From NCBI RefSeq assembly GCF_003334305.1, contig NZ_QOWS01000028.1: a stretch of 49,610 nt of DNA; one strand, given 5' to 3'. The notes beneath the pieces are model-generated. The model searched no databases. It worked only from the letters and a program-made list of their open reading frames with translations, and was not told the origin of the DNA. Source of the stretch: Escherichia coli (GTDB taxonomy: Bacteria; Pseudomonadota; Gammaproteobacteria; Enterobacterales; Enterobacteriaceae). Below, piece by piece: positions 7,369-14,692 of the stretch. The translations under genes and the position numbers were made by a program. The first letter of the stretch is position 1. Each line of letters opens with the position of its first letter.

Positions 7369-8718
7369 TTGGCGGGTTTTAACATCAAACATTGGTTTGC
7401 AGATGGCGCGTTTCGCACCATTATTCGCAATAGCGCCTGGTTAGGCTCCAGTAATGTCGTGAGCGCCTTGCTGGGTCTGTTGGCGCTCTCGTGTGCCGGT
7501 AAAGGGATGACGCCCGCCATGTTTGGCGTACTGGTGATTGTGCAATCGTACGCCAAGTCGATCAGCGATTTTATTAAGTTTCAGACATGGCAACTGGTGG
7601 TTCAGTACGGAACGCCAGCCTTGACCAACAATAATCCGCAGCAATTTCGCAATGTCGTCTCATTTTCCTTCTCGCTGGATATCGTCAGCGGCGCGGTGGC
7701 GATTGTCGGCGGCATTGCCTTACTGCCATTCCTTTCCCATTCATTAGGTCTGGATGACCAAAGCTTTTGGCTGGCGGCGCTGTATTGCACGCTCATTCCT
7801 TCAATGGCTTCCTCCACGCCGACCGGCATTCTGCGTGCGGTAGATCGCTTCGATTTAATTGCTGTACAGCAGGCGACGAAACCTTTTCTGCGCGCAGCGG
7901 GGAGCGTCGTAGCCTGGTATTTTGACTTTGGTTTTGCGGGTTTTGTTATTGCCTGGTACGTGTCGAATCTGGTTGGCGGCACCATGTACTGGTGGTTTGC
8001 AGCGCGCGAATTACGCCGCAGAAATATCCATAATGCCTTCAAATTGAATCTGTTTGAGTCTGCCCGACACATCAAAGGCGCGTGGAGTTTTGTCTGGTCA
8101 ACCAACATTGCCCACTCCATCTGGTCGGCGCGTAACTCGTGCAGCACAGTGCTGGTGGGGATCGTGTTAGGACCCGCTGCCGCCGGGTTATTTAAAATCG
8201 CCATGACATTCTTCGACGCCGCCGGAACGCCAGCGGGTTTGCTGGGTAAAAATTTTTACCCAGAGGTGATGCGTTTAGATCCGCGCACCACCAGACCGTG
8301 GTTGTTAGGTGTGAAGTCCGGTTTACTGGCGGGCGGAATCGGTATTCTGGTGGCGCTCGCGGTGTTTATCGTCGGCAAGCCGCTCATTTCGCTGGTGTTT
8401 GGCGTTAAGTATCTCGAAGCGTATGACCTGATTCAGGTGATGCTGGGCGCAATTGTGATTTCGATGCTGGGCTTCCCTCAGGAGTCATTGCTATTGATGG
8501 CGGGAAAACAGCGCGCTTTTCTCGTGGCGCAAACCATCGCCTCAATCGGCTACATCGTATTGCTGTTCATGTTCTGTCATCTGTTTGGTGTGCTGGGAGC
8601 AGCGTTTGCTTACTTCGGTGGGCAATGTCTGGACGTGGCGCTCTCGTTAATTCCAACCTTAAAGGCATTTTTTCAGCGCCATTCCTTGCTTTATAACGCA
8701 GCCGGAGAGAAATCCTGA
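7369..8718 (+). CDS. yghQ: Polytopic membrane protein, flippase-like (polysaccharide/lipid exporter family), YghQ
   Basis: 449-aa ORF with many hydrophobic helices; remembered as yghQ. TTG at 7369, so the true start is uncertain. Its stop (8716-8718) overlaps the next ATG (8718-8720). Confidence 0.78.
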   Translation: MAGFNIKHWFADGAFRTIIRNSAWLGSSNVVSALLGLLALSCAGKGMTPAMFGVLVIVQSYAKSISDFIKFQTWQLVVQYGTPALTNNNPQQFRNVVSFSFSLDIVSGAVAIVGGIALLPFLSHSLGLDDQSFWLAALYCTLIPSMASSTPTGILRAVDRFDLIAVQQATKPFLRAAGSVVAWYFDFGFAGFVIAWYVSNLVGGTMYWWFAARELRRRNIHNAFKLNLFESARHIKGAWSFVWSTNIAHSIWSARNSCSTVLVGIVLGPAAAGLFKIAMTFFDAAGTPAGLLGKNFYPEVMRLDPRTTRPWLLGVKSGLLAGGIGILVALAVFIVGKPLISLVFGVKYLEAYDLIQVMLGAIVISMLGFPQESLLLMAGKQRAFLVAQTIASIGYIVLLFMFCHLFGVLGAAFAYFGGQCLDVALSLIPTLKAFFQRHSLLYNAAGEKS

Positions 8719-9542
8719 TGATGAGAAAATATTTCCCGCTTGAGGCGAGCGAGCGTCTATTTGTTGCGATTGAAGAAGATGATGTCGTTGATGCACAGGT
8801 TAGTTTGCCGCCGACTATTGCACTAAGTTGTACCACCGAAATCATTCATGATAATTACGCGTTATGCCTGCAATTCTGGCTCAATGGCGTTGATCGTCAG
8901 GAATTACTGCGTTTAGTTCGCAAACAAGCCAAAGGCGATGAGCTGACTGCTGATGAGCGCAAACAATTTAAATACATGCGAGCGCGCTACAAGCACCTGC
9001 GTTTTGCGCAACGGCTGTATTTAAAGAAGCATCAGGCCGGATTTTTATTCGGCAAAACGACCGTTTTTCTGGGGCGTTTTCAGGACGGCTTTCGTAACGG
9101 TAAGAAAAATATTGTGTCGTATTACGGCAACCTGTTACGGATTTATTTAAGCTCTCCGGTCTGGTCGTTGGTGAACTATTCATTACGCCATAGCCAGTTA
9201 GAAAGCGTAAGCAGTTTTATTGCCTATCGGCAAAAGCAAATGCATACCCTGAAAGAGATTATTGCCAAACCGCGACTAACCGGCAGGGAATTTCATGATG
9301 TGCGAAAAATCATCAGCCAACAGGTTTCTTATTACGACACCTTAAGATCGCTTGATCCTGAAAATAAAGAGGCGTTACAGATTTCCCGTTTCCTCGCCGC
9401 CATTAATGGCCTGATGGGAGATAAACACGACGACATGGTGGCGGATGATATGGAAAACCGCCAGTCGTATGATGCACCGGTGGCGCTGGATAGCGATATT
9501 CGCCAGCGCTTAGAGCTGCTGATTTCGCGTTTTCCGCTATAA
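8718..9542 (+). CDS. Hypothetical soluble protein (274 aa)
   Basis: Intact ORF, translationally coupled to yghQ (ATGA overlap); no motif I can name; basic, Lys/Arg-rich. Confidence 0.6.
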   Translation: MMRKYFPLEASERLFVAIEEDDVVDAQVSLPPTIALSCTTEIIHDNYALCLQFWLNGVDRQELLRLVRKQAKGDELTADERKQFKYMRARYKHLRFAQRLYLKKHQAGFLFGKTTVFLGRFQDGFRNGKKNIVSYYGNLLRIYLSSPVWSLVNYSLRHSQLESVSSFIAYRQKQMHTLKEIIAKPRLTGREFHDVRKIISQQVSYYDTLRSLDPENKEALQISRFLAAINGLMGDKHDDMVADDMENRQSYDAPVALDSDIRQRLELLISRFPL

Positions 9543-9550
9543 CCGGAGCA

Positions 9551-10114
9551 ATGATGTCATCTCGTTTGATTATTGCGCTGATTATCATGCTTTTAGCCCC
9601 GGGTGTGCAGGCACACAATTTCGTCACTGGCAAAACGGTTACCCCTGTTTATATCCAGGAAGGCGGCGAGCTGCTTCTGAATAGCGACGACGAAATTCAC
9701 TACCAAAAGTGGAACAGCACACAATTAGCGGGAAAAGTCCGCATTATTCAGTATATCGCCGGGCGTAAGTCGGCGAAGAAAAAGAACTCACTGTTAATTA
9801 AAGCGGTTGAAGCGGCAAACTTTCCGCAGGATCGTTTTCAGCCCACCACCATTGTGAACACCGATGATGCCATCTTTGGTACTGGCTATTTTGTTGTTGG
9901 CAAAATCGAAAAAAATAAACGCCGCTATCCGTGGGCGCAATTCATTATTGACGGCAATGGACAGGGACGCGTTGCCTGGCGCTTGCCGGAGCAGAGTTCA
10001 ACCATTCTGGTGCTGAATAAAGCCGGGCAAATTCAGTGGGCAAAGGACGGCAGCCTGACGCCGGAAGAGGTAGATCATGTCATTGCGCTGGCGCAGAAAC
10101 TGATCAATGAATAA
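9551..10114 (+). CDS. Secreted/periplasmic hypothetical protein (187 aa) with N-terminal signal peptide
   Basis: MMSSRLIIALIIMLLAPGVQA|HNF looks like a Sec signal peptide with an AxA-like cleavage site; ggag RBS 8 nt upstream. Confidence 0.65.
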   Translation: MMSSRLIIALIIMLLAPGVQAHNFVTGKTVTPVYIQEGGELLLNSDDEIHYQKWNSTQLAGKVRIIQYIAGRKSAKKKNSLLIKAVEAANFPQDRFQPTTIVNTDDAIFGTGYFVVGKIEKNKRRYPWAQFIIDGNGQGRVAWRLPEQSSTILVLNKAGQIQWAKDGSLTPEEVDHVIALAQKLINE

Positions 10115-13498: not shown

Positions 13499-13746
13499 TA
13501 TTTATTCTCCAGCCATGGAAGTAGAGTTTCCATTAATTGCGCAGGGGTTTTGACATCCAGCAGAATATTAATAGGAATGGAAATATCGAATCTGTCTTCC
13601 AGCATCATTAAGAGATCCATCACTTTGATCGACTCCAGGCCAAGATCGTTGACGAGATCGCTGTCGGGCTTAATTTCCACACCGTTTTCGACCAAATCCT
13701 GTAAACAGGAAAGGATGTAATCCATTACTATTTCACGATTTACCAT
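13498..13746 (-). CDS. Acyl carrier protein (82 aa)
   Basis: Small acidic protein with DLGLESIKVMDL, matching the ACP phosphopantetheine-attachment consensus (D-L-G-x-D/E-S); start abuts the SPT-like gene. Confidence 0.8.
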   Translation of the reverse strand: MVNREIVMDYILSCLQDLVENGVEIKPDSDLVNDLGLESIKVMDLLMMLEDRFDISIPINILLDVKTPAQLMETLLPWLENK

Positions 13747-13777
13747 AGAAACGTTAACACACCTTTAAACAAGACAA

Positions 13778-14692
13778 TCAAAATAGCCCGTTGCGTAATG
13801 CGTGTTCCAGGCTAATCCCGGGAAACCAATTAATATCTTCAGAAATACGGTTATTACTTGCCGACCAGTCGGCGTGGGTTAATTCACGAATTTTCGAGCG
13901 GGTCAGCATAGGTTCTTTACCTGCCAGGCGACTCAACGCGGTACTGATATCCGCAAGGCAGGTGAGTACCGGCAGAGGAATACCAACCATTCGCACGGAA
14001 CCGCAACGGACGTTGGCGGCAAGTTGCTGTATGCGTTGCCAGTCATAGCCGCCAGCGACGCCATCGCATAATTCATAGGTTTGCGTCTGTACAGTTTCGG
14101 CGCTTAACCACTGACCCACTGCTTGCGCAAAATCGGTGACGTGCAGGAAAGAGAGCTGTGTATCTGGTGCACCAAGTCGTGGCAGCAGGCCGCGCAGCAT
14201 CCAGTCAAACAGCGGTTTTAACTCTTTATCGCCGGGACCATACACGGCTGTCGGGCGAAAAACGCCCAGCGTAATTTCGTCAGCCATTGCAGTCAGCCGT
14301 TGTTCGGCGATGTGTTTGGAATTTGCGTACCAGGAGAGCTCGGGATGGCGCGCCGCCAGCGAAGAGATAAACAGAAAACGTTGGCAAAAGCAGCTCTCTT
14401 TTGCTGCTTGCATCAGGCGCAGGCTGCCGTCAACGTTACAGCGGGTGAAAATCTCTTCTTTGTGCCCGCGCACTTGCCCGGCGCAATGGACCACTGCGCT
14501 GGCTCCGGCAACCAGCTTGCTAAGTGAATGAGTATCTTCCAGCGAACCGCGCACCCACGTGAGATTATCATTAACGTGAGCGCGGGCAGTACGCGTCAAT
14601 GCGCGAACGTGAAAGCCGCGGGCGAGCAGGTTATCGATAATATATTTACCGATAAACCCGGTAGCGCCCGTCACCGCGACAGTTTGATTCAT
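13778..14692 (-). CDS. NAD(P)-dependent epimerase/dehydratase-family (SDR) reductase (305 aa)
   Basis: ORF 13778..14902 trimmed to the ATG at 14692 (MNQTVAVTGATGFIGKYII, Rossmann GxxGxxG at N-terminus), giving an ATGA overlap with the upstream gene's stop. Confidence 0.8.
   Translation of the reverse strand: MNQTVAVTGATGFIGKYIIDNLLARGFHVRALTRTARAHVNDNLTWVRGSLEDTHSLSKLVAGASAVVHCAGQVRGHKEEIFTRCNVDGSLRLMQAAKESCFCQRFLFISSLAARHPELSWYANSKHIAEQRLTAMADEITLGVFRPTAVYGPGDKELKPLFDWMLRGLLPRLGAPDTQLSFLHVTDFAQAVGQWLSAETVQTQTYELCDGVAGGYDWQRIQQLAANVRCGSVRMVGIPLPVLTCLADISTALSRLAGKEPMLTRSKIRELTHADWSASNNRISEDINWFPGISLEHALRNGLF

Follow-up and report, generated by a model that had tools for sequence, protein, structure and literature searches.

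The sphingolipid locus of Escherichia coli contains four short stop/start overlaps between consecutive genes, all of the ordinary intra-operon type (−4 ATGA or −1 TRATG) and distributed over two convergent operons, at which the downstream gene is probably translated by termination-reinitiation. We assign this reading a probability of about 70%. The locus was examined within a 49,610-nt stretch of E. coli DNA (hereafter the window), and the RefSeq annotation used for comparison was that of E. coli strain A7.

Stop/start overlaps and gene content of the locus

The original prediction had placed four stop/start overlaps in this locus, and direct reading of the letters found each of them in its predicted place. 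On the plus strand, yghQ and hyp274 share 1 nt within TGATG (8716..8720; yghQ TGA 8716-8718, hyp274 ATG 8718-8720), and lptF2 and lptG2 share 4 nt, ATGA (11212..11215; lptF2 TGA 11213-11215, lptG2 ATG 11212-11214). On the minus strand, acpR and spt share 1 nt within TAATG (13496..13500; acpR TAA 13500..13498, spt ATG 13498..13496), and aasR, the FAAL gene, shares 4 nt, ATGA, with cerR (14689..14692; aasR TGA 14691..14689, cerR ATG 14692..14690). Co-directional overlaps of the termination-reinitiation type consist of adjacent same-strand CDSs whose stop and start codons share 4 nt (ATGA/GTGA) or 1 nt (TAATG/TGATG), and this is the arrangement at all four junctions. The CDS limits of strain A7 in RefSeq agree with all four, and PGAP has placed the boundaries read here in NZ_CP028767.1, a sequence 100% identical to the window. 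This confirmed the observation of four stop/start overlaps.

The operons yghS-yghR-yghQ-hyp274-ytfJ-like-lptF2-lptG2 (plus strand) and aasR-cerR-acpR-spt (minus strand) converge, and constitute the sphingolipid locus of non-K-12 E. coli; K-12 is devoid of all four junctions. The yghQ gene (7369..8718, +) encodes a full-length, 449-aa protein of the MOP flippase family and is cut off by IS5 in K-12-type strains; a literature search on yghQ and sphingolipids found no paper naming the gene. The hyp274 product (8718..9542, +) is a conserved, soluble, all-alpha protein of 274 aa with a predicted CHAD-like fold, and neither this protein nor YghO has a family match in Pfam or NCBIfam. The lptF2 gene (10145..11215, +) encodes a second, locus-specific LptF paralogue (TIGR04407, 318.9 bits versus a cut-off of 230) and lptG2 (11212..12291, +) a second LptG paralogue (TIGR04408, 305.3 bits versus 240), the canonical lptF/lptG pair being located elsewhere in the genome. 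The annotation of the window contains no lptB-like gene, near lptF2/lptG2 or otherwise; the housekeeping LptB is the one bound by LptF2/G2 in Caulobacter (bioRxiv 10.64898/2026.04.12.717747).

The minus-strand operon encodes (i) the fatty acyl-AMP ligase AasR, an acyl-AcpR synthetase (14689..16410, −; NF006624, 875 bits versus a cut-off of 600), (ii) the extended-SDR reductase CerR/Epi (13778..14692, −), (iii) the specialised acyl carrier protein AcpR (13498..13746, −), which matches ACP profiles below their cut-offs, and (iv) serine palmitoyltransferase (spt, 12326..13498, −; NF047599, 599.9 bits versus 500). The order of these genes is identical to that of ECD_02851-02854 in E. coli BL21, in which aasR, cerR and acpR correspond to ECD_02851, ECD_02852 and ECD_02853, respectively; of the BL21 orthologues, AasR is reported to acylate AcpR, and SPT, which has been assayed, to prefer acyl-AcpR (PMC9386255). 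With an ACP gene directly preceding spt and a FAAL-type acyl-ACP synthetase gene nearby, the locus has the layout of Rhodobacteria-type ceramide synthesis clusters.

A perfect, GC-rich inverted repeat of 10 bp (CCCGCCGTGG-7 nt-CCACGGCGGG, 12293..12319) was read in the 34 nt that separate the stop of lptG2 from the convergent stop of spt, and is likely to be a shared terminator hairpin marking the ends of both operons. It was missed by the consensus terminator scan because it has no T-run. Over positions 5500-17000, the promoter and terminator consensus scans gave chance-level numbers (14 found versus 13.3 expected, and 14 versus 14.0, respectively). Given gaps of at most 45 nt and a single hairpin between the convergent ends, the genes of each operon would share one mRNA.

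Frequency of overlaps

The description of these overlaps as pervasive was found to be overstated. They account for 4/9 junctions in the two operons, the remaining five having gaps of 11, 30, 31, 31 and 45 nt. Elsewhere in the window 7 of 18 short junctions overlap (Fisher p = 1.0 versus the locus), the frequency in the neighbouring gsp operon is the same, and comparison with the ∼24% of E. coli co-directional pairs that overlap according to the literature (PMC10666635) gave a binomial P of 0.15; enrichment in the locus was thus ruled out. The distances −4 and −1 are the commonest between E. coli genes (PMC6728339, PMC10666635). Such overlaps are the commonest mode of joining bacterial operon genes and are not special to this locus.

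Authenticity of the genes and their starts

The genes are real and not chance ORFs, as had been proposed. This was indicated by ORF length, family matches above curated cut-offs, codon-position substitutions that rank 3>1>2 and show protein-coding constraint in all eight genes, and published biochemistry (PMC9386255). The overlaps, which had been offered as the argument for this conclusion, contribute little to it. A start-type codon accompanies, at −4 or −1, 16 of the window's 46 annotated stops; five of these codons open ORFs of just 1-13 codons, i.e., occur by chance, and 11 open annotated genes of 123-497 aa. That the motifs are real therefore follows from their combination with long conserved ORFs.

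As judged from profile coordinates and N-terminal conservation, the downstream starts at the four junctions are correctly placed. Alignments to the LptG, SPT and SDR profiles begin at residues 1-5 of the proteins as proposed: position 2 of TIGR04408 aligns to residue 4 of LptG2, positions 1-390 of NF047599 align to residues 1-389 of SPT, and the Rossmann motif of CerR (VAVTGATGFIG) begins at residue 5. The E. coli lptG2 and spt genes have no alternative start codon between −30 nt and +60 nt around the upstream stop, and nearly all relatives have a start codon in the aligned position, in many cases with no other candidate. The longest-ORF starts GTG 11131 (lptG2), GTG 14902 (cerR) and TTG 16437 (aasR) were rejected, since profile coordinates and cross-species alignment favour the annotated ATGs.

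It is highly improbable that the overlaps are annotation artefacts, with the true starts located downstream, or upstream at GTG 11131 or GTG 14902, so that the genes either do not share 1-4 nt or overlap far more extensively. The mechanical longest ORFs of lptG2 and cerR do begin at these two GTGs, the start of hyp274 could be placed one codon later (a second in-frame ATG is present at 8721-8723), and in Escherichia an in-frame GTG lies six codons past the cerR start. However, if cerR began at codon 7, its Rossmann motif would lose part of the first beta-strand, the alternative hyp274 start lies just 2 nt past the stop and is still within coupling range, and both the profile alignments and the retention of the aligned start codon among relatives argue for the annotated starts.

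Conservation of the overlapping junctions

The distribution of overlaps was analyzed in 34 related loci, with totals that vary by junction (25 to 34 for the overlapping ones). Overlaps were present in 107 of 121 cases at the four junctions that overlap here, and in 4/114 at the other five (0/25, 0/16, 0/24, 4/17 and 0/32). Three of the four remain overlapped across ∼12 genera, in which neighbouring junctions range from 7 to 431 nt, and the overlapping pairs stay adjacent even in rearranged gene orders. Across the Enterobacterales and Pseudomonas sequences compared, the overlapped state of these four junctions is kept, while other junctions drift. The conservation of ATGA is in part forced, as each of its bases belongs to a start or stop codon.

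The lptF2-lptG2 junction overlaps in all 29 loci (ATGA in 28, TGATG in one). By duplex-energy scoring, a Shine-Dalgarno (SD) sequence upstream of lptG2 is absent both here (+0.2) and in all 29 loci, whose median of −1.7 equals background. The acpR-spt junction overlaps in 33/34 loci, by 14 nt in 21, 1 nt in 10, and 17 and 4 nt in one each. The 3′ end of acpR contains a GGAG SD (13507..13510, −) 8 nt ahead of the spt ATG, which is kept as TGGAGA in nearly all relatives; its energy of −6.4 kcal/mol equals the median, and 97% of the 34 loci are at or below −4.4. The aasR-cerR junction overlaps in 29/33 loci, 26 of them with ATGA. Its AGGA SD (14702..14705, −), 9 nt ahead of the cerR ATG, is weak to moderate (−4.3 kcal/mol, at the 16th percentile among random positions; the 33 loci have a median of −3.5). 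The yghQ-hyp274 junction overlaps in 16 of 25 loci and does not in nine, the distances in relatives being −8, −4, −1, 0, +3, +8/9 or +13. A GGAG SD (8704..8707, +) is located in the 3′ end of yghQ, 10 nt ahead of the hyp274 ATG, and its duplex energy with the 16S 3′ end (−6.6 kcal/mol) is within the top 3% of random window positions.

Probable translational coupling

Translational coupling by termination-reinitiation is the likely mechanism at these junctions. A ribosome terminating on the upstream gene would reinitiate at the adjoining start, and translation of the downstream gene would then depend on that of the upstream one. Of five native E. coli pairs with such short overlaps that have been tested experimentally, four showed strict coupling (PMC6728339), and coupling declines within a spacing of ∼20 nt, being lost at about 20 nt (PMC10666635).

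The most convincing candidate for coupling is lptF2-lptG2, which is always overlapped and SD-less, and whose products are predicted partners of one ABC-transporter permease dimer; in Caulobacter, LptF2 and LptG2 co-purify (bioRxiv 10.64898/2026.04.12.717747). As a tentative proposal, to which we give less than even odds, this junction could be an obligate site of SD-independent termination-reinitiation, fixed across at least 12 genera of Gammaproteobacteria. At acpR-spt, SD-assisted reinitiation is likely to be accompanied by some independent initiation. Coupling appears least certain at yghQ-hyp274, a junction that is labile in evolution and has a strong SD.

RNA structures hiding the downstream ribosome binding sites were considered and rejected. 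The four 90-nt junction windows fold no more stably than shuffled sequences (z = +0.83, +0.61, +1.15 and −1.19), and a hairpin that pairs the cerR SD and AUG here fails to be conserved already among Escherichia strains and species. The SD-bearing starts show no evident obstacle to independent initiation, which counts against coupling.

An unlikely alternative is that the overlaps are real but functionally neutral, a by-product of compact operons and shared start/stop bases, each downstream gene being initiated independently with no meaningful coupling or control of stoichiometry. The SD in the 3′ end of the upstream gene is strong for hyp274 and spt, and given the lack of unusually stable local structure independent initiation is also possible at these two starts; the cerR SD is weak to moderate. 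The drift of the yghQ-hyp274 spacing from −8 to +13, an overlap frequency equal to the window background, and the example of bioBF, an uncoupled ATGA pair among the five tested in E. coli (PMC6728339), are likewise consistent with neutrality, as is the finding that the products of ∼70% of short-distance E. coli pairs are not subunits of a complex (PMC10666635). However, independent initiation could hardly serve the internal start of lptG2, which is SD-less in all 29 loci yet always overlaps lptF2. Neutrality also fits poorly with three junctions staying overlapped across ∼12 genera while their neighbours vary, with an acpR-spt overlap retained through four different configurations, and with the coupling of the majority of tested E. 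coli pairs. These observations favour termination-reinitiation, a reading whose strength differs between the junctions.

The overlaps had also been taken to suggest stoichiometric co-expression. AasR/CerR and YghQ/hyp274 are, to our knowledge, not known to form complexes. Complex subunits are overrepresented 4.5-fold among short-distance E. coli pairs (PMC6728339, PMC10666635), although most such pairs fall outside this class, and the suggestion is sensible for LptF2/LptG2 only, on account of the co-purifying Caulobacter homologues.

Significance and comparison with known systems

The four overlaps matter little in themselves, as they are of a known kind and can be read off the existing RefSeq coordinates; both the occurrence of stop/start overlaps and their connection with translational coupling are textbook knowledge. 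The gene starts in a poorly studied sphingolipid locus are now well supported, and native junctions should be kept in heterologous expression of, for example, lptF2/lptG2 or acpR/spt. If lptF2-lptG2 is indeed an obligate reinitiation site, a hard-wired 1:1 ratio of LptF2 to LptG2 could matter, as the pair apparently has to draw on the same LptB ATPase, the only one in the cell, as the LPS exporter. Being SD-less and always overlapped, the lptF2-lptG2 junction is also well suited, as a clean natural example, to testing SD-independent reinitiation in E. coli.

The locus described here has its gene set and order, aasR-cerR/epi-acpR-spt, in common with the Rhodobacteria-type locus of Caulobacter crescentus (CC_1152-CC_1168) and with BL21 ECD_02850-02854 (PMC9386255, PMC11324152, bioRxiv 10.64898/2026.04.12.717747). 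The latter two likewise contain yghO (the aca gene), LptF2/LptG2 paralogues and a putative flippase, and the papers on them call the acpR-spt pair an operon; a text search of PMC9386255 and bioRxiv 10.64898/2026.04.12.717747 did not find the word "overlap" in either. In the single Caulobacteraceae locus recovered, acpR and spt do not overlap (+1), and the aasR-cerR junction is GTGA.

The pairs studied by Huber et al. in 2019 (PMC6728339) and 2023 (PMC10666635) carry the same ATGA and TGATG/TAATG motifs on co-directional operon neighbours. As in those pairs, the upstream gene contains an SD, of weak to high strength, at three of our junctions, and LptF2/LptG2 are heteromeric-complex partners, a class enriched among them. 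In contrast to the Huber pairs, for which coupling was measured, the four pairs described here are known from sequence, and one of the junctions is SD-less. Moreover, acpR and spt of relatives usually overlap by 14 nt, and Huber et al. treated distances of −8 to +10 as predictive, a range that does not include this value.

A further parallel is the paralogous, canonical lptF-lptG pair of E. coli K-12 (b4261/b4262; lptF 4486218-4487318, lptG 4487318-4488400), which is likewise joined by a stop/start overlap, TGATG. The canonical junction combines a −1 overlap with a strong AAGGAG SD (−8.3 kcal/mol), whereas lptF2 and lptG2 have a −4 overlap and lack an SD, a state conserved in the 29 related loci.

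Stop/start overlaps in the two sphingolipid operons

The four stop/start overlaps of the original prediction were confirmed by direct reading of the sequence, and coincide with the PGAP CDS boundaries. On the plus strand, TGATG at 8716-8720 joins yghQ (7369-8718) to hyp274 (8718-9542), which encodes a conserved 274-aa protein, and ATGA at 11212-11215 joins the lptF-like gene lptF2 (10145-11215) to the lptG-like gene lptG2 (11212-12291). On the minus strand, TAATG at 13496-13500 joins acpR (ACP, 13746..13498) to spt (SPT, 13498..12326), and ATGA at 14689-14692 joins aasR (FAAL, 16410..14689) to the reductase gene cerR (14692..13778). 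These overlaps are already explicit in RefSeq coordinates and belong to a well-described class, the short co-directional gene overlaps.

The entire window corresponds to positions 4003909-4053518 of NZ_CP028767.1 (E. coli strain A7) in reverse orientation, with 100% identity over the 11.2-kb stretch around the four junctions. Of 5426 complete E. coli genomes, 4055 (∼75%) carry at least 80% of this stretch. The plus-strand RefSeq genes are yghS, yghR-like, full-length yghQ (product name 'lipopolysaccharide biosynthesis protein'), and those for a hypothetical protein, a YtfJ-family protein, lptF and lptG. In the convergent minus-strand set, RefSeq lists genes for a fatty acyl-AMP ligase, an NAD-dependent epimerase/dehydratase, an acyl carrier protein and Spt; these four are orthologous to aasR, epi/cerR, acpR and spt. 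In K-12-type strains (locus L060, NZ_CP072986.1 753522-760533), an IS5 element stands in place of everything between the yghQ 3' end and yghO (window equivalent about 8430-16780), and both the ceramide genes and all four junctions are therefore absent. The locus itself has already been described in the literature.

The 34-nt gap between the convergent lptG2 and spt stops is filled by a GC-rich, perfect inverted repeat (10-bp stem, 7-nt loop; 12293-12319), likely a shared terminator hairpin, which was missed by a consensus scan because it lacks a T-run. The genes yghS and yghR-like (5820-7323, plus strand) and yghT (4954-5646, minus strand) encode three paralogous P-loop proteins annotated 'dTMP kinase', with scores (24.5 and 32 bits) far below the cut-off of 83 for that family. 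Both yghS and yghR accompany the locus in other genera.

Frequency of overlaps and reality of the genes

Of the 46 annotated stops in the window, 16 are accompanied by a start-type codon at -4 or -1. Chance accounts for five of these codons (ORFs of 1-13 codons), whereas the other 11 open annotated downstream genes, so the four junctions are genuine overlaps between genes. They are not unusual. Overlaps of -1 or -4 occur at 11 of 37 same-strand junctions in the window: four in the sphingolipid locus, five among the genes of the gsp operon (type II secretion), and one each at glcD/glcE and cbtA/DUF5983. The term 'pervasive' was too strong, because the rate in the two operons (4/9 junctions, the remaining spacings being 11, 30, 31, 31 and 45 nt) matches that of other short junctions in the window (7/18; Fisher p = 1.0) and is compatible with the published E. 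coli rate (binomial P = 0.15), with 24% of co-directional pairs lying between -8 and +6 and -4 being the commonest distance (PMC10666635). The gsp operon (33864-44325, plus strand), with five overlaps at 12 junctions from pppA to gspM and several GTG starts (GTGA), provides an in-window baseline as high as that of the lipid locus.

The genes are real, as predicted, on grounds independent of the overlaps: profile scores, substitution pattern and published biochemistry. Scores exceed the NCBI curated cut-offs for LptF (318.9 vs 230), LptG (305.3 vs 240), SPT (599.9 vs 500) and FAAL (875 vs 600). Compared with five other genera, all eight junction genes show substitutions at codon positions in the order 3 > 1 > 2, including hyp274 (0.28, 0.21 and 0.57 at positions 1, 2 and 3), which matches no Pfam or NCBIfam family. 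Biochemical work on the BL21 versions of the four minus-strand genes (ECD_02851-02854) showed synthesis of 3-oxo-sphinganine via acyl-AcpR, with yghO as the putative N-acyltransferase gene (PMC9386255).

Conservation of the junctions and start codons

The SPT protein was scanned against one genome per species, which yielded 34 orthologous loci (SPT identity 53-99%) from Escherichia, Pseudocitrobacter, Citrobacter, Hafnia, Sodalis, Serratia, Tatumella, Mangrovibacter, Pluralibacter, Rosenbergiella, Pantoea, Pseudomonas, Stutzerimonas and two MAGs. All twelve locus proteins were placed in every related locus by tblastn, and all junction distances were computed. The lptF2/lptG2 overlap was found in 29/29 loci (28 ATGA, one TGATG), that of acpR/spt in 33/34 (-14 in 21, -1 in 10, -17 and -4 in one each; +1 in a Caulobacteraceae MAG), that of aasR/cerR in 29/33 (26 ATGA), and that of yghQ/hyp274 in 16/25, the others being spaced between 0 and +13. 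For the five junctions without an overlap in E. coli, one was seen in 4 of 114 cases among relatives (lengths 7 to 431 nt). Overlapping pairs also remain adjacent despite rearrangement of gene blocks in Sodalis, Serratia, Rosenbergiella, Mangrovibacter and Pantoea. This comparison suggests that the tight junctions have been maintained in evolution, with part of the ATGA conservation being forced, since each base sits in a start or stop codon.

Conservation also supports the start assignments. Position 2 of the LptG equivalog model aligns at residue 4 of the lptG-like product, positions 1-390 of the SPT model span residues 1-389, and alignments of the reductase to SDR models start at its residues 1-5. 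The reductase N-terminus, MNQTVAVTGATGFIG, has the Rossmann glycine motif in its usual position. The upstream starts of the mechanically longest ORFs (GTG 11131 and GTG 14902) had no backing from profiles or relatives. Consecutive ATGs at 8718 and 8721, both at most 2 nt from the end of yghQ, leave the hyp274 start ambiguous by one codon.

In most genera (L007-L032, locus positions about 9985-10015), acpR and spt overlap by 14 nt, the acpR stop lying within spt codons 4-5. The 1-nt TAATG form occurs only in Escherichia and Rosenbergiella, where the distance between the two starts is 1 nt longer and the frame is thus shifted. Serratia sp. M24T3 carries two acpR-spt pairs (L012, L022), one inside a complete locus; the other shows 79% identity, retains the 14-nt overlap and has no other locus genes within 10 kb. 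The cerR/acpR spacer (13747-13777, minus strand; L003-L036) hardly varies in length, with a range of 27-34 nt and 17 of 32 loci at exactly 31 nt. Its Enterobacterales versions contain a conserved AGGTGTG...TTTCTATG, which places AGG ∼15 nt from the ATG, beyond normal Shine-Dalgarno (SD) spacing.

Likely translational coupling

Coupling by termination-reinitiation is the most likely reading at all four junctions, judging from their sequences and published tests: strict coupling was found for four of five native E. coli ATGA pairs, the contribution of the SD varied between essential and none, and coupling was gone at ∼20 nt spacing (PMC6728339, PMC10666635). Local folding at the four junctions is no more stable than in shuffled controls, giving no indication of a structure that would block independent initiation. 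SD strength was calculated as the energy of the duplex formed with the 3' end of 16S rRNA (random background mean -2.0). Strong SDs lie within the upstream gene for hyp274 (-6.6) and spt (-6.4; median across relatives -6.4, and -4.4 or lower in 97% of loci), and that of cerR is moderate (-4.3). The lptG2 start region (11190-11215, plus strand) has none (+0.2), nor has any of the 29 related loci in 12 genera (median -1.7, indistinguishable from background), yet lptG2 always overlaps the lptF2 stop. Reinitiation would thus be most confidently assigned to lptF2/lptG2, which lacks an SD, never loses the overlap and encodes partners in one permease dimer, and least confidently to yghQ/hyp274, because of its strong SD and labile distance.

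Stoichiometric co-expression, also proposed originally, is a reasonable rationale for LptF2/LptG2 only. AcpR serves SPT as a substrate carrier, no complex is known for the sequential enzymes AasR and CerR, and ∼70% of short-distance E. coli pairs do not encode complex subunits (PMC10666635). The original observation was correct, its interpretation partly right, and the finding ordinary.

Comparison with known LptF/LptG pairs

The locus lptF and lptG correspond to the Caulobacter sphingolipid-transport paralogues LptF2/LptG2 (bioRxiv 10.64898/2026.04.12.717747; PMC11324152). The Caulobacter proteins co-purify mutually and with LptB, and are reported to use the housekeeping LptB; the E. coli UTI89 locus is figured there for comparison (bioRxiv 10.64898/2026.04.12.717747). 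No lptB-like ATPase gene is annotated beside lptF2/lptG2 (5820-17923). The word 'overlap' occurs neither in that preprint nor in PMC9386255. The housekeeping lptF and lptG of K-12 likewise overlap (TGATG, -1), but, unlike the SD-less lptF2/lptG2 junction, theirs carries a strong AAGGAG (-8.3).
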